Virus record (IMG/VR): IMGVR_UViG_2698536307_000009
Direction: 5' to 3' (one strand)
DNA from: a virus
Taxonomy: Duplodnaviria; Heunggongvirae; Uroviricota; Caudoviricetes
DNA: 6,540 nucleotides
Below, one piece after another: positions 143-6,540 of the stretch (positions within the stretch are counted from its first letter, which is position 1; each line of letters begins with the position of its first letter). The position numbers were made by a program, and so were the translations under genes. The notes beneath the pieces are model-generated. The model did no database searches. It was not told the DNA's origin and saw nothing but the letters and a program-made list of their open reading frames with translations.

Positions 143-718
143 CTACGGCAGTGCTGGCCATTCAATATCCGGTGCAGTTGATGTATCAACACGGTTCAGC
201 AACACCCGATACTTTTTCCAGGCTTCCAGCAACAAGGTTTCTTCCTCCGTTGCGATCTCCAGATCCACAGCATCCTGAAGCGGCGCTATATGCTCACTGG
301 CTATCTGCATCAGGCTGTTTTTTGTTTCTTCCGCCTCCCGGATCCGGAACAGTTTTTCTGCTTCCGTATCCTTCACCCAGGCTGTGCCGTTCCACTTCTG
401 ATATTCCCCTCCCGGCGATAACCAGGTAACATTTTCCGGTAACGGACCGAGTTCAGAAATAAATAACGCGTCGCCGGAAGCCACGTCATAAACCGTTTTA
501 CCCCGATGATCTTCAACGAGATGCCACGATGCCTCATCACTGTTGAAAACAGCCACGAAGCCTGCCGGAATATCTGGCGGTGCAATATCGGTACTGTTTG
601 CTGGCAGACCTGTATGAGGCGGAATATATGCGTCACCTTCACCAATAAATTCATTAGTTCCGGCCAGCAGATTATAAATTTTTATGGTCCGTGGTTGTTC
701 ACTCATTCTGAATGCCAT
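143..718 (-). CDS. tfaQ: Tail fiber assembly protein (lambda Tfa family), 191 aa
   Basis: 191-aa ORF; translation [35 protein letters not shown]...DIEWPALP matches lambda Tfa and the K-12 TfaQ/TfaR paralogs as I recall them. Start overlaps the upstream stf stop (TAATG). Symbol assigned from Qin-like gene context. Confidence 0.9.
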
Positions 719-1026: not shown

Positions 1027-2360
1027 GCATTTACCGCCCGGACTGTCAGCCTGTAATTTCCCAGCGCCAGCTGCGTGAAGCGATATGTGGTTTCCGTCGT
1101 CCGGGCCGTGCTGACCAACCGCTCACTGCCGTCGTCCGCTGCCACGGTCAGGCGAAGCATAAAGCTCACCCCCTTCACCACCTTCGGCGTGTCCCAGCGC
1201 GCCAGCACCTGGTATTCCCCGCTGTCTGCGGTGACTTCTGCGGTCAGGTGCTGAACTGCTGGCGGCGTGACACCATTCACCGTGCCGCTCTGGTCACCGT
1301 CAAAGTGCGCCCCGTTATCCACGATGGCTTCTTTCTCCGGTACATGCTGCACGGCAGTGATGGCATACGTACCGTCATCGTTCTCACGGATACTCACACA
1401 GCGGAACAGGCGCTGACGCAGCGTCGGCAGCTTCAGCCCCCACACGCTGTACTCGGCAACGCCGTCAGGAACCCGGCTCACTTTCACCTTCACGCCGTCG
1501 GTGACGGACTGGACCTCCACGCTCACCGGATTACCCTGCCCGTCAACCAGGCTTATCAGCGTGGTGCCGGAGGATGGCAGCGTGATTTCACGGTCGAGCG
1601 TCAGTGTCCGCGTCTGGCTGTTCACCGCCAGCACGCGCCCGCCGATGCTGATCCCCGCATAGTCATCATCACAGATTTCAATGACATCACCTGGTACATG
1701 GCGAAGCCCTTCGGCACCCACGCTGAAGTCCACGGTCTGCGTTTCCAGCAGTTCCGTTTTAATCAGCCACAGCCCGGCTCGGTGCGCCTGCCCCCGCCTG
1801 GTACAGCCAAAGGCATCCATCTTCGTGACGTTACGACCGTAACGGGCAATGGCCTGCGTGTCCTCCACAAGCTCTGTCGCCGTCTCCCAGCCGTTATCCG
1901 GGTCAATCCAGTTCACCTCAACGGCATTATGGCGGTCCTTCAGGGCGCTGAAGCTGTAGCGGAACGGCGCGCCATCATCCGGCATCACCACATTACTGCG
2001 GTTATAGGTCCACACCTTATCTGATGGTCGGTCCTGCACGAACGTCAGCGTCTGCCCGTTCCATACCGGCATACAGCGCATCGCCGAGCAGAAATCACTG
2101 AGAACATCCCACGCCTTACGCTGTGTGGTCAGCCAGGCATTACAGGTGATGCGCGGCTCCGTGCCGCCAAAACCGTCCGGCACCGACTGGTCGCAACACT
2201 GGCCGATGACATACAGCGCCCATTTATCCACATCTGCCGCACCAAGACGTTTACCCATGCCGTAGCGCGGGTGGCTGGAGATCTGTCTCGCTGGCCTGCC
2301 GCAGTTCTTCAACTTCCCGGCGCAGCTTTTCGTTCTCAATTTCAGCATCCCTTTCGGCAT
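993..2360 (-). pseudogene. Internal fragment of lambda J-like host specificity (tail tip) protein; J homology roughly 1017..2271
   Basis: 455-aa ORF; from YGMGKRLGAADVDKWALYVIGQ to [14 protein letters not shown] it matches the central part of lambda J (about residues 330-770 of 1132 from memory). The first ~28 codons are Nu1 DNA read out of frame; the last 7 codons (PVHIPIR) are stf DNA read out of frame. Confidence 0.85.
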
Positions 2361-2508
2361 ACCATTTTATGACGGCGGCAGAATCATAAAGCACCTCATT
2401 ACCCTTGCCACCGCCTCGCAGAACGGGCATTCCCTGTTCCTGCCAGTTCTGAATGGTACGGATACTCGCACCGAAAATGTCAGCCAGCTGCTTTTTGTTG
2501 ACTTCCAT
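2251..2508 (-). pseudogene. Terminase small subunit Nu1 homolog, N-terminal fragment (85 aa, winged-HTH DNA-binding domain retained)
   Basis: MEVNKKQLADIFGASIRTIQNWQEQGMPVLRGGGKGNEVLYDSAAVIKWYAERDAEIENEKLRREVEELRQASE matches lambda Nu1 residues 1-~77; after DLQP it diverges (PALRHG-stop) where J-derived DNA is fused, near plus 2271/2272. Native start codon and upstream cosB are intact. Confidence 0.85.
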
Positions 2509-2519
2509 TGTTCATTCCA

Positions 2520-2730
2520 CGGACAAAAACAGAGAAAGGAAACGACAAAGGCCAAAAAGCCCGCTTTCAGCACCTGTCGTTTCCTTTCTTTTCAGGGGGT
2601 ATTTTAAATAAAAACATTAAGTTACGACGAAGAAGAACGGAAACACCTTAAACCGGAAAATTTTCATAAATAGCGAAAACCCGCGAGGTCGCCGCCCCGT
2701 AACCTGTCGGATCACCGGAAAGGACCCGTA
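2520..2730. other. Lambda-type cohesive end site: cosB (2520-2685, with Nu1-binding R-like elements), cosN (2686-2697), cosQ side (2698-~2730)
   Basis: Plus 2686-2697 AGGTCGCCGCCC is the reverse complement of the lambda 12-nt cohesive end GGGCGGCGACCT. Flanks match the lambda left end (CGCGGGTTTTCGCTATTTATGAAAATTTTCCGG...) and right end (...CGACAGGTTACG) as recalled. Elements with the GTTTCC core are visible between cosN and the Nu1 start. Confidence 0.85.
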
Positions 2731-2896
2731 AAGTGATAATGATTATCATCTACATATCACAACGTGCGTGGAGGCCATCAAACCACGTCAAATAATCAAT
2801 TATGACGCAGGTATCGTATTAATTGATCTGCATCAACTTAACGTAAAAACAACTTCAGACAATACAAATCAGCGACACTGAATACGGGGCAACCTC

Positions 2897-3130
2897 ATGT
2901 CAACGAAGAACAGAACCCGCAGAACAACAACCCGCAACATCCGCTTTCCTAACCAAATGATTGAACAAATTAACATCGCTCTTGAGCAAAAAGGGTCCGG
3001 GAATTTCTCAGCCTGGGTCATTGAAGCCTGCCGCCGGAGACTGTGCTCAGAAAAAAGAGTTTCTTCTGAAGCAAACAAAGAAAAGAGTGACATTACTGAA
3101 TTGCTCAGAAAACAGGTCAGACCAGATTGA
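2897..3130 (+). CDS. ynfO: Small basic protein YnfO-like (77 aa), predicted ribbon-helix-helix (Arc/MetJ-like) DNA-binding fold
   Basis: ATG-initiated 77-aa ORF in lambda right-end-like DNA. Basic N-terminus (KNRTRRTTTR), then a strand-helix-helix pattern (NIRFP / NQMIEQINIALEQKG / NFSAWVIEACRRRL). Position and size fit K-12 Qin ynfO; the fold is inferred from the pattern only. Confidence 0.65.
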   Translation: MSTKNRTRRTTTRNIRFPNQMIEQINIALEQKGSGNFSAWVIEACRRRLCSEKRVSSEANKEKSDITELLRKQVRPD

Positions 3131-3187
3131 AGCAATTTAGATAATCGTGCAGACTACGCCCCCTCATATCACATGGAAGGTTTATCT

Positions 3188-3598
3188 ATGGATCAGGTAG
3201 TCATTTTTAAACAAATATTTGATAAAGTTCGAAACGATTTAAACTATCAATGGTTTTATTCTGAGCTAAAACGTCACAATGTCTCACATTACATTTACTA
3301 TTTAGCCACAGAGAATGTTCATATTGTATTAAAAAATGATAATACAGTGTTATTAAAGGGCCTAAAAAACATTGTGTCTGTCAAATTTTCAAAGGATAGG
3401 CATCTTATAGAAACGACCTCTAATAAGCTGAAATCCAGAGAGATCACATTTCAGGAATACAGAAGAAACCTTGCTAAAGCAGGAGTTTTTCGGTGGGTTA
3501 CAAATATCCACGAACAAAAAAGATATTACTATACCTTTGATAATTCATTACTATTTACTGAAAGCATCCAGAAAACTACACAGATCTTACCACGCTAA
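3188..3598 (+). CDS. ydfO: YdfO/YbcV family protein (DUF1398), 136 aa
   Basis: [34 protein letters not shown]...QILPR. Start placed at ATG 3188, which has a GGAAGG Shine-Dalgarno 7 nt upstream (3175-3180); the in-frame ATG at 3173 has none. Confidence 0.85.
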
Positions 3599-3606
3599 AC
3601 CATAAC

Positions 3607-3635
3607 GTCCGGCTTCTCTCACTCCTGAGCCGGAC
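3607..3635 (+). terminator. Hairpin 9 nt after the ydfO stop (possible terminator, weak U-tract)
   Basis: Perfect 8-bp inverted repeat GTCCGGCT...AGCCGGAC with a 13-nt loop, followed by TGCATTGGTTTAAT. Confidence 0.3.
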
Positions 3636-3700
3636 TGCATTGGTTTAATAAAAACCATCAACAATTGTGATTTAGATATTCGGAACCATTCAAATATAAC

Positions 3701-3723
3701 AAAACCCCGTAAAAACGAGGTTT
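3701..3723 (-). terminator. Possible bidirectional terminator between convergent ydfO and gnsB
   Basis: Minus strand AAACCUCG-UUUUUA-CGGGGUUU: stem with one G-U wobble, flanked by A and U runs, about 30 nt after the gnsB stop. Confidence 0.25.
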
Positions 3724-3749
3724 ATGGATAAATTTTATTATTGAATACA

Positions 3750-3923
3750 TCAGATTAAATTAATCTTGACATCATAGCTTTCAAGACCCGTCATTTTTTC
3801 CCGTGCGGTAAACTGAATACTGGTAACTTCTTTCCCGGTCTTTTTCTTAAGTTCAATAATTTTTTTTGTTATATATTCAGAAATATCTGCTTCTGCTTTT
3901 GTTTTTAAGTTTTCAATATTCAT
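3750..3923 (-). CDS. gnsB: GnsB (GnsA/GnsB family small protein, 57 aa)
   Basis: Not in the supplied ORF track (below its size cutoff). Minus-strand translation is MNIENLKTKAEADISEYITKKIIELKKKTGKEVTSIQFTAREKMTGLESYDVKINLI. AAGAGGAA Shine-Dalgarno immediately upstream. Family and symbol from recalled GnsA/GnsB sequence and Qin gene order. Confidence 0.8.
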   Translation of the reverse strand: MNIENLKTKAEADISEYITKKIIELKKKTGKEVTSIQFTAREKMTGLESYDVKINLI

Positions 3924-3965
3924 CATTTCCTCTTTTAGTCTGTTATGACTTTCCAGTTACACAGT

Positions 3966-4000
3966 AAGTCGATTATATGGTGCAAACGTGTAAAAGATAA
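3966..4000 (-). promoter_or_regulatory. Candidate sigma70 promoter for gnsB
   Basis: Perfect -10 TATAAT (minus strand, plus 3977-3972) about 50 nt upstream of the gnsB start; the -35 at 17-bp spacing is weak (TTATCT). Confidence 0.3.
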
Positions 4001-4094
4001 GATGAAACATCGCAATAATCAACATACGATAGTCTAAATTTTACACAAACAGACAAAGAGAATTTTCCTGAATTATCAATGCAATAGCATCAAA

Positions 4095-4250
4095 TCAACT
4101 CAAGAGCCTTATTGCTGCTTCCAGAATTTCTTCTGAAGTAACATGTCGATCCGCGGCTACATAAATGACTTTATGATCTCCGGTCAGAGATGGAAACCCT
4201 GCGGCCATTACAGTAAGGTGTGTTTTTTCGCCATTTGGATATTCACGCAT
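4095..4250 (-). CDS. ynfN: YnfN-like small protein (51 aa if started at MREYPNGEK; alternative in-frame ATG at 4325 gives 76 aa)
   Basis: Open frame ending at 4095; the track's start at 4367 is TTG. The ATG at 4250 has GGAG 11 nt upstream and gives the 51-aa length I recall for K-12 YnfN. The minus-strand terminator at 4370-4389 leaves little room for a promoter ahead of the upstream starts. Confidence 0.5.
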   Translation of the reverse strand: MREYPNGEKTHLTVMAAGFPSLTGDHKVIYVAADRHVTSEEILEAAIRLLS

Positions 4251-4369
4251 GATGGTGTTAACTCCAGTCATCGCTGGCACTACCACTGCTGGTTCAGAGT
4301 TAAAAAAAACTATGATTTTTTTCATGATGTTACCGTAGTATGTGAGTATCCATCGAATAGACACCAAGC

Positions 4370-4389
4370 AAAAAAGCTCCCGAAGGAGC
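4370..4389 (-). terminator. Intrinsic terminator between cspI and ynfN
   Basis: Minus strand GCUCC-UUCG-GGAGC (GC-rich 5-bp stem, UUCG tetraloop) followed by UUUUUU; plus 4376-4389 stem-loop with the A-run at 4370-4375. Confidence 0.6.
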
Positions 4390-4596
4390 CTTCATTTTCA
4401 CTTTTTTAAATCCAACGACAGACGGCTGGCATTTAAGTATTGTGAAATATTATCAAATGTAATCATCATTGATTTACAAAAGATACATTTTGCCCCGAAA
4501 GGATTCATGTCAGAAACATCAAAAGATGATGTTCTATACTGGGAACCATGACAACACGGGCATCTAAAGTGAATATGGTTTGTAATATTGTCTACC

Positions 4597-4809
4597 TCAA
4601 AGCGCCACTACATGAACAGCGGCAGGACCTTTAGGTCCGTTCTCAATACCAAATTCAACTTCCTGATTCTCAGTTAATGTTTTGAAATCGTTGCTCTGAA
4701 TTGCTGAGAAATGGACAAACACATCTTTGCTGCCATCTTTCGGCGTGATGAAACCAAAACCTTTTTCAGGGTTAAACCATTTCACTAAACCAGTCATTTT
4801 GTTAGACAT
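4597..4809 (-). CDS. cspI: Cold shock protein, CspA family (70 aa), CspI-like
   Basis: [70 protein letters not shown] carries the RNP1 (KGFGFI) and RNP2 (VFVHF) motifs. Shine-Dalgarno AAAGGTAATAATT-ATG resembles cspA. Neighbours fit K-12 Qin cspI. Confidence 0.93.
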
Positions 4810-4989
4810 AATTATTACCTTTTGAAGAAATTAGCCCTTGGGCAGAATGGTCCGAAAAAAAATATCAGAGAGAAAAACCAACAAGGAAATCTCAAGAGGT
4901 ACAAATAATAAAATTATAACAATGACTGCTTCAGATAAATTTGTAACAAACCAGAACACCATTAACGCATGATTAACCACCCATAGCAA
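4810..4989 (-). promoter_or_regulatory. cspI promoter and long 5' leader with cold-box-like element
   Basis: Minus strand: -35 TTGCTA (plus 4989-4984), 17-bp spacer, -10 GTTAAT (plus 4966-4961), resembling cspA TTGCAT/CTTAAT. Predicted leader about 145 nt; GGTTTGTTACAAAT near its 5' end resembles the cspA cold box. Confidence 0.45.
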
Positions 4990-5171
4990 GGATTACTTTT
5001 GTAAAGAAAAACACAGCAATGAAAGAATGGCTTTATTTATTAATAAAACGTGTCATTCTGATTAAGACCTTTTATCTTACCCTTAAGATTTCAGGAATTT
5101 TGGCTCATGGAAGAGTCCTTTTTATTTAAATTTTACATTCCGCGATGTAAATGTTCCGATTTAATATTACC

Positions 5172-6195
<1,024 letters not shown>

Positions 6196-6199
<4 letters not shown>

Positions 6200-6425
6200 A
6201 GATATTTATGATGAGGACGCTCGTGCTTATTGGCAGGATTTTCAATCTTAAAGGAGTACTGATGCTGCAGATAAGACTCAACTTTTTCTGACAATTTTTC
6301 TGCTACTTCCAGGAAGACTTGCCGGACGCTCCTTCTGGCTGCTGCCTCATAAAACTCCAGCGCAGCTCCTTCAACACGGTCCATGGCGACATCCAGGTCA
6401 AAAATTTCACCGTCAAAGCGTTCTT
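6196..6425 (-). CDS. ydfR: YdfR-like protein, 5'-truncated by IS1 insertion (likely pseudogene); first ATG at 6384 gives 62 aa
   Basis: Frame is open from the stop at 6196 to the IS1 boundary at 6425/6426 with no start codon except the internal ATG at 6384, which lacks a Shine-Dalgarno. Position between the endolysin and where the holin would lie fits ydfR. Stop overlaps the rrrQ start (ATGA). Confidence 0.5.
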
Positions 6426-6540
6426 GGTAATGACTCCAACTTATTGATAGTGTTTTATGTTCAGATAATGCCCGATGACTTTGTCATGCAGCTCCACCGA
6501 TTTTGAGAACGACAGCGACTTCCGTCCCAGCCGTGCCAGG
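6426..6540 (-). mobile_element. IS1 insertion sequence, terminal 115 bp including the right inverted repeat; element continues beyond the window
   Basis: Plus 6426-6455 GGTAATGACTCCAACTTATTGATAGTGTTT is the IS1 right-end inverted repeat; the following sequence matches the IS1 3' region in reverse complement as recalled. Confidence 0.9.
6441..6540 (-). CDS. insB: IS1 transposase InsB (InsAB') C-terminal end, partial at window edge
   Basis: Minus-strand translation ends ...[19 protein letters not shown]-stop, with the stop codon at plus 6441-6443. Confidence 0.8.

Follow-up and report, generated by a model that had tools for sequence, protein, structure and literature searches.

The DNA analysed here (hereafter the window, a stretch of 6,540 nt from a virus of the Caudoviricetes, IMG/VR record IMGVR_UViG_2698536307_000009) carries a cassette already known as a cold-shock moron from Qin-type lambdoid prophages. 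Taking the evidence together, we consider it likely that this cassette is organized around a thermoregulated core unit, cspI-ynfQ, which is followed by a partial terminator and by read-through into two further genes, ynfR and ynfN.

Locus identity and gene content

Between positions 2272 and 6425, the window and the cryptic prophage Qin of E. coli K-12 have 99.7% identity and share gene order, promoter, leader, and hairpins; outside of these positions, the flanks of the window diverge from K-12. Within 3600-5170, only two differences from K-12 were found, including an extra A in an A-run of ynfN and a G/A difference at 5029. The original prediction described a cold-shock cargo cluster of three small genes, cspI, ynfN, and gnsB, between the lysis genes and ynfO-ydfO. 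While these three genes are present on the minus strand where they had been placed, the cluster has five annotated genes rather than three; the curated annotation of the K-12 Qin counterpart (cspI-ynfQ-ynfR-ynfN-gnsB; b1552, b4724, b4749, b1551, and b1550, respectively) includes ynfQ and ynfR, which had been overlooked between cspI and ynfN. The features of the cassette are as follows, in the direction of transcription:

4984-4989, minus strand: -35 hexamer TTGCTA of the putative cspI promoter, read from the sequence
4961-4969, minus strand: extended -10 TGC-GTTAAT of the putative cspI promoter, with a 17-nt spacer from the -35
4810-4954, minus strand: cspI 5' UTR of 145 nt, by alignment
about 4937-4953, minus strand: partial cold box in the cspI leader
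4597-4809, minus strand: cspI, encoding a 70-aa cold-shock domain protein (CspI in the K-12 annotation)
4398-4586, minus strand: ynfQ, 62 aa, with an ATT start (K-12 curated annotation)
4370-4393, minus strand: terminator-like hairpin with UUCG loop and U6
4330-4395, minus strand: ynfR, a 21-aa open reading frame (K-12 annotation)
4095-4325, minus strand: ynfN, intact 76-aa form, by sequence comparison with K-12
3972-3977, minus strand: perfect TATAAT, a speculative -10 for gnsB, read from the sequence
3750-3926, minus strand: gnsB, with the curated start at the second ATG (3923), 57 aa
3702-3723, minus strand: terminator-like hairpin and T tract that end the cassette

The description of this cluster as a moron is upheld by its location and by its architecture. 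Rz and the packaging end flank the cassette in Qin, in Citrobacter-type prophages, and in the phages Tritos, 2H10, and PhiR42_1, the three phages having the same cassette 3' of Rz. The cassette has its own promoter, as judged by motif, and its own terminators, as judged by folding. Morons of lambdoid phages such as the lambda bor and lom regions are likewise self-contained, with their own promoter and terminators, between the lysis genes and the packaging end. By contrast with these, the Qin cassette is located on the late-operon strand, and its cargo is related to cold shock and RNA chaperones rather than consisting of surface or virulence proteins.

The cspI promoter and leader

A cspA-type cold-shock promoter is defined by a -35 element TTGC(A/T)(T/A) and an extended -10, TGn followed by (C/G)TTAAT, with a spacer of about 17 nt between them. 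The -35/-10 pair TTGCTA/GTTAAT previously noted upstream of cspI is part of a putative promoter of this type, TTGCTA-N17-TGCGTTAAT, at 4989-4961, which aligns to the promoters of cspA, cspB, and cspG, including their -35 elements; TGCGTTAAT is identical in cspB and cspG. The composite motif TTGCWW-N13-15-TGNSTTAAT had a single occurrence in the window and did not occur in any of 200 shuffled sequences, and the cspA-type motif was also found upstream of csp in related loci. A second GTTAAT (4977-4972) was ruled out as the -10, as it is just 6 nt from the -35.

The cspI coding sequence has no base differences from K-12. CspA-family proteins are characterized by one cold-shock domain, a length of about 70 aa, and the RNP1 (KGFGFI) and RNP2 (VFVHF) motifs; the translation of cspI contains KGFGFITP and VFVHF, and the Pfam cold-shock domain (PF00313) matches residues 5-69 with E = 1.6e-31. 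Leaders of this family extend about 145-160 nt from a cold-box element. When the cspI leader was aligned to those of cspA, cspB, and cspG, a base-by-base correspondence was obtained in which the base aligned to the cspA +1 is C4954; with the start site placed by this homology, the leader comprises exactly 145 nt up to the ATG at 4809. This length agrees with that of the original prediction (about 145 nt) as well as with the 145 bases, including a cold box, given for the cspI 5' UTR in the literature (PMC6719143, citing Wang et al. 1999). The cold-box-like element held up in part; GGUUUG is conserved, but cspB and cspG have 16 nt there that cspI lacks. The Shine-Dalgarno sequence of cspI in the leader is AAGG.

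The leader and coding region matched the Rfam cspA thermoregulator (RF01766) over the full model (1-428) at 4955-4570 on the minus strand, with 112.8 bits (gathering cut-off, 78 bits) and E = 4.6e-29, a match that is thus far beyond chance; the thermoregulator was also present in all 20 related loci tested. The cspI mRNA resembles cspA thermoregulators in its long 5' UTR, in the pairing of a 5'-end element to the early coding region, in a GCC-loop-GGC hairpin right before the Shine-Dalgarno sequence, and in the conserved AUGACUGGU downstream box. It differs from cspA in its shorter leader (145 as compared to about 160 nt) and truncated cold box, and its score is at the lower end among members of this family (86-208 bits in related loci). 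A chance resemblance of the promoter-like and cold-box-like elements to functional ones might be considered, as the region is AT-rich (36% G+C over the RF01766 match) and lone hexamers are frequent in such DNA. This explanation, to which we assign a negligible probability, is already refuted by the Rfam E value, the shuffled sequences, the alignment to cspA, cspB, and cspG, and the experimental characterization of this locus (PMC13271884, PMC6719143).

Post-transcriptional regulation by temperature, which the original prediction had proposed, is supported not only by the RF01766 match but also by a report that the cspI 5' UTR behaves as an RNA thermometer, with a fold switch detected by in vivo and in vitro DMS probing (PMC13271884). 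CspA, CspB, CspG, and CspI have been described as the only cold-induced Csp proteins (PMC7858274); on the two points that could have overturned the prediction, a short leader and a lack of cold induction, the literature speaks for a long leader and for cold induction. In our analyses, a long-range helix was predicted to pair the 5' end of cspI with codons 4-12 (z = -2.1) and was maintained, with some compensatory changes, in 14 related leaders. When the leader was folded at four temperatures (10, 15, 25, and 37°C) with an equilibrium method, which is blind to a co-transcriptional thermometer, an identical long-range stem was obtained throughout and no switch was predicted; the temperature switch is thus reported on the basis of the published probing (PMC13271884) and not of the folding performed here.

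These data are consistent with a mechanism in which the cspA-type promoter would give rise to an mRNA with a 145-nt leader, and in which this leader and the first cspI codons would form a cspA-family thermoregulator. At 37°C, the 5' end and the early coding region would be paired in the long stem and the ribosome-binding site thereby concealed, while in the cold the nascent RNA would adopt a shorter fold that permits translation.

ynfQ and the paralogous cspG locus

The first of the two overlooked genes, ynfQ, encodes a YmcF-like protein. Proteins of this family are about 62 aa in length with conserved FRCPCCHGSQYRTS and GAKCIFCK motifs; YnfQ matches PF23641 over its full length (E = 1.7e-32), has the invariant Cys, Gly, and Lys columns, contains two CxxC pairs that are zinc-ribbon-like, and is 66% identical to YmcF, the product of the gene after cspG. 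The ATT of ynfQ is located 10 nt past the cspI stop, and its Shine-Dalgarno sequence, GAGG, overlaps the cspI TGA. As this weak AUU start is combined with a Shine-Dalgarno sequence that overlaps the cspI stop, ynfQ is probably translated by coupling to cspI. Among 80 loci, all 47 csp-coupled ymcF copies start with ATT or ATC, and the csp stop is 9-10 nt upstream of such a ymcF start in 46 of the 80.

The cspG-ymcF-ymcE-gnsA locus of the E. coli K-12 chromosome is built along the same lines, with a cspA-type promoter, a long leader, an ATT-initiated ymcF homologue 10 nt past the csp stop, a hairpin and T tract after the ymcF stop, an annotated open reading frame across this hairpin, and a Gns protein last. 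The two loci differ in that the cspG leader is 156 nt long with a full cold box, whereas the cspI leader is without 16 nt there; in the middle gene, as YnfN is without detectable similarity to YmcE; and in the packing of the cspG locus, which is without the 168-nt gap that precedes the gns gene in Qin.

The UUCG hairpin and ynfR

Downstream of ynfQ, folding of the minus strand gave a hairpin with a core of GGCUCC-UUCG-GGAGCU at 4390-4375, an extended stem of 9 bp (4393-4372), a free energy of -12.4 kcal/mol, and a U6 tract at 4375-4370. This GC-rich hairpin with its direct U tract has the sequence characteristics of an intrinsic terminator; from the ynfQ TGA, the distance is 4 nt to the extended stem and 7 nt to the GC core. 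A consensus terminator scan called the hairpin (4376-4389) on the plus strand only, which we think is explained by greedy stem extension into the U tract. The original prediction of a UUCG terminator between cspI and ynfN was therefore correct with regard to the hairpin itself, which is real, but not with regard to its setting, as it sits after the overlooked ynfQ and is overlapped by ynfR. The hairpin was invariant in variants with 93-96% identity, and an equivalent hairpin and T tract, with differing stem sequences, was found within 60 nt past the ymcF stop in 54 of 80 loci. A hairpin with U6 that is conserved in this way resembles a competent terminator and fits a real 3' end.

The ATG of ynfR is 2 nt past the ynfQ stop, its codons 1-8 make up the hairpin, through which its reading frame continues, and its stop is 4 nt ahead of the ynfN ATG. 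The ynfR open reading frame is not conserved; variants with 93-96% identity have a premature TAG, and the Citrobacter-type cassette has no ATG. YnfR-SPA, which carries the tag at the 3' end, was found to be strongly cold-induced (PMC6001520), which indicates that transcripts traverse the UUCG hairpin.

ynfN

The A-run at 4302-4309 (plus strand) is A8 in the window and A7 in K-12; K-12 ynfN is thus frameshifted and encodes a 51-aa form, while the extra A in the window restores the full 76 aa. The N-terminal 25 residues of YnfN are conserved through the family. YnfN matched no Pfam or NCBIfam family, a structural search gave no significant match, and a role as a YmcE-type antitoxin was rejected, given that no similarity to YmcE could be detected. 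A ynfN homologue comes after ymcF in 24 of the 80 loci, and these 24 represent at least eight named genera according to locus titles; the distance between ymcF and the ynfN homologue is 64-98 nt in several genera, no terminator was found between the two genes in 7 of the 24, and one homologous phage cassette has csp-ymcF-ynfN without the hairpin.

Probable transcription past the hairpin

The separation of cspI and ynfN into different transcription units, as initially proposed on the basis of the hairpin, is probably wrong. An efficient hairpin, with cspI (and ynfQ) upstream and ynfN downstream under its own promoter, would be in keeping with the canonical structure and U6 tract as well as with the conservation of the hairpin as the csp-ymcF 3' end across loci that vary in downstream content. 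We nevertheless regard such an arrangement as unlikely, as the distance from the U tract to the ynfN ATG is only about 45 nt, ynfR begins 5' of the hairpin and its product is cold-induced, and ymcF and ynfN are conserved as neighbours, in some loci without a hairpin. The best candidate for a ynfN promoter downstream of the hairpin, TTGCTT-15 nt-GATACT, matched 7 of 12 positions with poor spacing and was rejected as unconvincing. Co-regulation also argues against separate units; cspI, ynfQ, and ynfN co-vary in two RNA-seq studies (PMC11228462, PMC7406224), with AZT induction of 6.5-, 5.9-, and 5.8-fold, respectively, and matching SspA dependence in one (PMC11228462) and nearly identical stationary-phase profiles of cspI and ynfN in the other (PMC7406224). 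Such co-regulation could also stem from a second cold-responsive promoter within ynfQ, where the consensus scan identified a weak sigma-70-like site (4554-4526); as this site is upstream of the hairpin, transcription of ynfN from there would still require read-through.

It is very unlikely that the phage late promoter is the main source of ynfN, and perhaps gnsB, expression, such that Q antitermination would override both hairpins, the hairpin would block transcription in the lysogen, and the co-variation would reflect low-level prophage induction. The cassette does lie on the strand of the lysis genes, immediately 3' of Rz, and Q-modified polymerase is able to pass terminators in lambdoid phages. 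AZT, which induces cspI, ynfQ, and ynfN, is also a DNA-damaging treatment (PMC11228462). By contrast, Qin is cryptic and heavily deleted, induction of YnfR was seen upon cold shock rather than upon DNA damage (PMC6001520), and ymcF-ynfN is found in four loci in which no csp was detected directly upstream.

We thus return to a leaky terminator; the UUCG hairpin is probably a conserved 3' end of the csp-ymcF unit that is passed by some transcripts. Read-through as the route to ynfN, and likewise its cause, are what we infer, with the literature on YnfR and on co-regulation behind this reading. With most transcripts terminating at the hairpin and U6, cspI-ynfQ would be the core unit, while the fraction that reads through would include ynfR and ynfN, with gaps of 2 nt and 4 nt; ynfN would hence track the regulation of cspI. 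Ribosomes that halt at the ynfQ stop, antitermination by Csp proteins in the cold, or the two combined would probably aid read-through. With a stop codon 5 bp ahead of a terminator, termination in a reporter system fell from about 90% to under 10% (PMC4824070), and Csp proteins are able to antiterminate (PMC9765468). As a tentative extension, which we consider possible but less than probable, the hairpin may be a conditional terminator that is suppressed by ribosomes at the ynfQ stop, and possibly by cold-accumulated Csp proteins, such that cold-dependent translation of cspI-ynfQ gates ynfR and ynfN; ymcF and ynfN would then represent a functional pair across Enterobacteriaceae, and the AUU/AUC start of csp-coupled ymcF would set how frequently the hairpin is masked.

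gnsB and the end of the cassette

GnsA/GnsB family proteins are about 57 aa in length and match the PF08178 (GnsAB_toxin) profile; GnsB matched this profile with E = 3.3e-35 and is 67% identical to GnsA. In toxin-antitoxin pairs of the GnsA-YmcE type, a YmcE-like gene immediately precedes and overlaps gns. As the upstream gene ynfN is unlike YmcE and is 168 nt from gnsB, GnsB should not, on these grounds, be filed in such a pair. Within the gap, the TATAAT is about 45 nt 5' of gnsB and is associated with a weak putative -35, TTATCT; a 75% diverged cassette has kept the TATAAT block in part, and this putative promoter was absent from the calls of the consensus scan of the window. gnsB would probably be expressed from its own weak promoter plus read-through, with the second hairpin (-11 kcal/mol, z = -3.2; supported by scan and folding) closing the cassette. 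In two published gene tables, gnsB is absent beside cspI and ynfN (PMC11228462, PMC7406224). Regulation of gnsB may be separate from that of cspI and ynfN.

Conclusions

The 145-nt leader, cold induction, and thermometer behaviour of cspI have been published, and curated K-12 annotation already includes the five genes. What the present analysis contributes are corrections, i.e., that the cassette has five genes and that ynfN encodes 76 aa, with the K-12 reference form representing a frameshift remnant. The conserved unit extends from the promoter and thermometer leader through csp and an AUU-initiated ymcF to the hairpin, and ynfN probably relies on transcripts that continue past this hairpin. 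If the hairpin indeed acts as a translation- or Csp-sensitive gate, the cassette would represent a compact natural cold-controlled attenuator within a phage moron, which would be of modest interest to the fields of cold shock and transcription-translation coupling.

Gene Content and Prophage Context

Window positions 2272-6425 aligned with the Qin cryptic prophage of Escherichia coli K-12 MG1655 at 99.7% identity with one gap; between 3600 and 5170, two positions differ from K-12: the A-run at 4302-4309, which is longer by one A, and position 5029 (G/A). At least 80% of the stretch is present in approximately 2,100 of 5,426 complete E. coli genomes. The original prediction described three small minus-strand genes (cspI, ynfN, and gnsB) between the lysis genes (rrrQ, rzpQ, and rzoQ) and plus-strand ynfO-ydfO; these genes and their placement were borne out, but the K-12 curated record has five genes, adding ynfQ and ynfR. 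The cassette comprises the following features (genes from the K-12 curated record; hairpin from a terminator scan and folding):

4597-4809, minus strand, cspI
4398-4586, minus strand, ynfQ
4330-4395, minus strand, ynfR
4095-4325, minus strand, ynfN
3750-3923/3926, minus strand, gnsB
3723-3702, minus strand, second hairpin and T tract at the cassette end

Consistent with the proposed cold-shock cargo cluster, the same cassette is found after Rz in phages Tritos, 2H10, PhiR42_1, PhiR63_1, and HannyBb, and, in Citrobacter-type prophages, after the lysis genes and before HNH and terminase genes. This shared position accords with a moron that brings its own promoter and terminators. By analogy with lambda, Q-modified polymerase starting at the late promoter should transcribe past both hairpins in the lytic cycle. 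Morganella phage IME1369_01 (L006, 1330-2869) carries a csp gene downstream of its antiterminator Q gene, with a strong cspA-thermoregulator leader (208 bits). The next gene has the annotation lipid A biosynthesis lauroyl acyltransferase, and the pair would represent another type of cold-related phage cargo.

Elsewhere in the window, positions 1-121, 907-2271, and 6426-6540 have no counterpart in the compared K-12 Qin region, and an 85-aa Nu1-like N-terminal ORF (2251-2508) abuts a 455-aa tail-protein ORF (993-2360), which identifies the source of the window as a Qin-like prophage with a deletion different from that of K-12. An Rfam IS009 match (177-375, minus strand; 221.5 bits, cut-off 117) lies inside a tail-fibre assembly gene (143-718), and a plus-strand terminator-like hairpin with a T tract (5102-5117) is located between the cspI promoter and rzpQ.

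cspI Promoter and Thermoregulatory Leader

The predicted cspA-like promoter upstream of cspI was found on the minus strand as a -35 TTGCTA (4989-4984), a 17-nt spacer, and a GTTAAT (4966-4961) preceded by TGC, i.e., an extended -10. A search for the composite motif gave a single hit in the window and no hit in 200 shuffles; the motif can be aligned base for base with the cspA, cspB, and cspG promoters, and TGCGTTAAT of the cspI promoter is identical in cspB and cspG. A second GTTAAT (4977-4972) was ruled out as a -10, being merely 6 nt from the -35.

With regard to the leader, C4954 aligns with the known cspA +1, which gives 145 nt, in agreement with the predicted length and equal to the value of Wang et al. 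(1999) as quoted in PMC6719143. The proposed cold box is partial: GGUUUG is kept, but 16 nt are absent relative to cspB and cspG. The leader and coding region matched the Rfam cspA thermoregulator (RF01766) at 112.8 bits (cut-off 78, E = 4.6e-29), and the cspI, cspG, and cspB leaders have been identified as RNA thermometers by in-cell and in vitro DMS probing (PMC13271884), both of which support post-transcriptional regulation of cspI by temperature as originally predicted. The MFE fold computed for the leader together with 60 coding nt predicts a single long stem (-44.8 kcal/mol, z = -2.1) between the 5' end, which is the cold-box region, and codons 4-12, which are the downstream-box region; this stem matches the published 37°C form (PMC13271884). 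RNAalifold indicated that this long-range helix is kept, with compensatory changes at several pairs, in 14 related leaders from Escherichia, Citrobacter, Salmonella, Yokenella, and Intestinirhabdus. No structural switch of the cspI leader was predicted at 10-37°C; equilibrium folding is unable to test a switch, which therefore rests on published experiments. The literature already speaks against both a short leader and a lack of cold induction (PMC6719143, PMC7858274, PMC13271884).

A Conserved csp-ymcF Unit

The ATT start codon of ynfQ lies 10 nt past the cspI stop, and its Shine-Dalgarno GAGG overlaps the cspI TGA; the gene encodes a 62-aa product with two CxxC pairs (Pfam YmcF-like, E = 1.7e-32) that is 66% identical to YmcF, encoded by the gene after cspG. 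YmcF and YnfQ were reportedly discovered by D'Lima et al. in 2017 as cold-induced proteins with ATT starts. PMC10191623 cites that study for AUU initiation, and ynfQ is labelled "cold shock induced" in PMC11228462. A table in PMC6001520 gives the name "ynfQ" to another ORF, which lies between ydfJ and ydfK at 1632890; as ynfT, at this same coordinate, heads a later list of Qin genes, the ydfJ-ydfK ORF appears to have since been renamed ynfT.

Among 80 YmcF-family loci (one genome per species), csp ends 9-10 nt before the ymcF start in 46, with a 29-nt gap in one more, and the start codon is ATT or ATC in all 47 csp-coupled ymcF copies. The 21 loci with an ATG start all lack an intact csp directly before ymcF; 12 uncoupled copies also start with ATT. 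In 54 of the 80 loci, a hairpin with a T tract is found no farther than 60 nt from the ymcF stop, and in 50 of these it starts at most 12 nt after the stop; since the stems vary (GGCTCC/GGAGCC, GGCCCC/GGGGCC, CAGGTC/GACCTG, and GCCTCGC/GCGAGGC), its structure rather than its sequence is conserved. The cspA thermoregulator was present in 20/20 csp-ymcF loci tested. This comparison identifies promoter, thermometer leader, csp, AUU-ymcF, and hairpin as a conserved unit, of which the originally predicted terminator is the 3' end. At the K-12 cspG locus (L002, 2348-2578), where the hairpin is GGCTCC-CTCGT-GGAGCC-T6, and at locus L064, the start of ymcE lies 26 nt ahead of the ymcF stop, and the gene crosses the following hairpin and T tract, an arrangement that parallels ynfR in the cspI cassette.

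In Silvania, Leclercia, and Enterobacter, ymcF genes that stand alone and start with ATG have their own cspA-type promoter motif approximately 190-220 nt upstream (L073, L081, and L082 at ~2280-2309; L086 and L087 at 2288-2316), which suggests that ymcF is able to act independently as a long-leader cold-shock gene. The csp-ymcF operon of Salmonella has its 3' end catalogued as a small RNA: in S. enterica subsp. diarizonae (L020, 2647-2726), Rfam sRNA STnc220 (102 bits) overlaps the ymcF 3' end and terminator; the window had no Rfam match to STnc220 at E <= 1. In Citrobacter sedlakii (L014, ~2290-2690), no stop codon separates a degenerate csp frame (KEFN for KWFN, VFVPS for VFVHF) from ymcF, with which it is in frame; this is a CSD-YmcF fusion or else a csp gene in decay.

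ynfN and gnsB

In the window, ynfN is an intact ORF of 76 aa. The plus-strand A-run at 4302-4309 is A8 (T8 in ynfN codons 6-8), and the A7 of K-12 causes a frameshift that yields the annotated 51-aa form. The K-12 reference ynfN is a frameshift remnant because conservation of YnfN residues 1-25, MKK-VFFN among them, extends to homologues with identities as low as 52%, and because the 51-aa form has far fewer member sequences in public data than full-length forms; the NCBI annotation pipeline likewise flags K-12 ynfN. YnfN had no family assignment in Pfam or NCBIfam, and structural comparison gave no significant match.

GnsB, located 168 nt beyond ynfN, belongs to the GnsA/GnsB family (Pfam) and is 67% identical to GnsA. 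In Pfam, this family carries the label of a toxin in a toxin-antitoxin system whose partner is YmcE; this label is not supported at the gnsB locus because the upstream YnfN is unrelated to YmcE. A perfect TATAAT (3977-3972), which lies in a partly conserved block and is accompanied by a weak -35, might, speculatively, be gnsB's own promoter; gnsB is not listed with cspI and ynfN in the expression tables of PMC11228462 and PMC7406224.

Probable Read-Through at the Hairpin after ynfQ

The predicted UUCG hairpin is present on the minus strand at 4390-4370 (GGCUCC-UUCG-GGAGCU plus U6), with an extended stem of 9 bp that folds at -12.4 kcal/mol. The original prediction that this hairpin makes cspI and ynfN separate transcription units was not upheld, as cold-induced YnfR (PMC6001520) and the co-variation of cspI and ynfN argue against a tight boundary. 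ynfR (21 aa) starts 2 nt after the ynfQ stop, upstream of the hairpin that forms its codons 1-8, and stops 4 nt before the ynfN ATG. VanOrsdel et al. found that YnfR tagged at the 3' end could hardly be detected under normal conditions and that cold shock induced it strongly (PMC6001520), and hence transcripts cross the hairpin in the cold. The YnfR peptide itself is not conserved; variants of 93-96% identity have TAG at codon 12, and the Citrobacter-type cassette lacks the ATG.

Expression data show cspI and ynfN varying together: AZT treatment raised cspI 6.5-fold, ynfQ 5.9-fold, and ynfN 5.8-fold, with SspA dependence after AZT of 38-, 42-, and 51-fold, respectively (PMC11228462), and in long-term stationary phase four ratios were almost equal between cspI and ynfN (PMC7406224). 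No convincing promoter could be read in the approximately 45 nt between the U tract and the ynfN ATG. A ynfN homologue starts 64-98 nt after ymcF in 24/80 loci (at least eight named genera: Escherichia, Shigella, Citrobacter, Trabulsiella, Yokenella, Raoultella, Klebsiella, and Scandinavium), of which 4 had no csp detected directly upstream of ymcF and 7 had no detectable terminator between ymcF and ynfN; a 60%-identical phage cassette has the order csp-ymcF-ynfN and no hairpin. The conserved pairing of ymcF with ynfN hints at a shared function. Such pairs occur with or without csp upstream or gnsB downstream (e.g., L041, L042, L056, L059, L018, L038, and L047).

The hairpin lies 4-7 nt from the ynfQ stop. 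When the distance from a stop codon to a terminator was shortened from 28 to 5 bp in a reporter system, termination fell from ~90% to <10%, as the terminating ribosome blocked hairpin folding (PMC4824070); Csp-family proteins have also been reported to antiterminate (PMC9765468). Given the induction of ynfR, the co-regulation, the short gap, the conservation of ymcF-ynfN, and the proximity of stop codon and hairpin, the most likely source of ynfN expression is transcription that starts at the cspI promoter and reads through the hairpin.

The cspI cassette is thus real, was largely correctly described by the original prediction, and is already known; the corrections concern two missed genes, the true length of ynfN, and a probable operon link from cspI to ynfN across the hairpin. 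The only reading of this locus with some novelty is that the hairpin, beside the ynfQ stop codon, may act as a conditional gate for ynfN.
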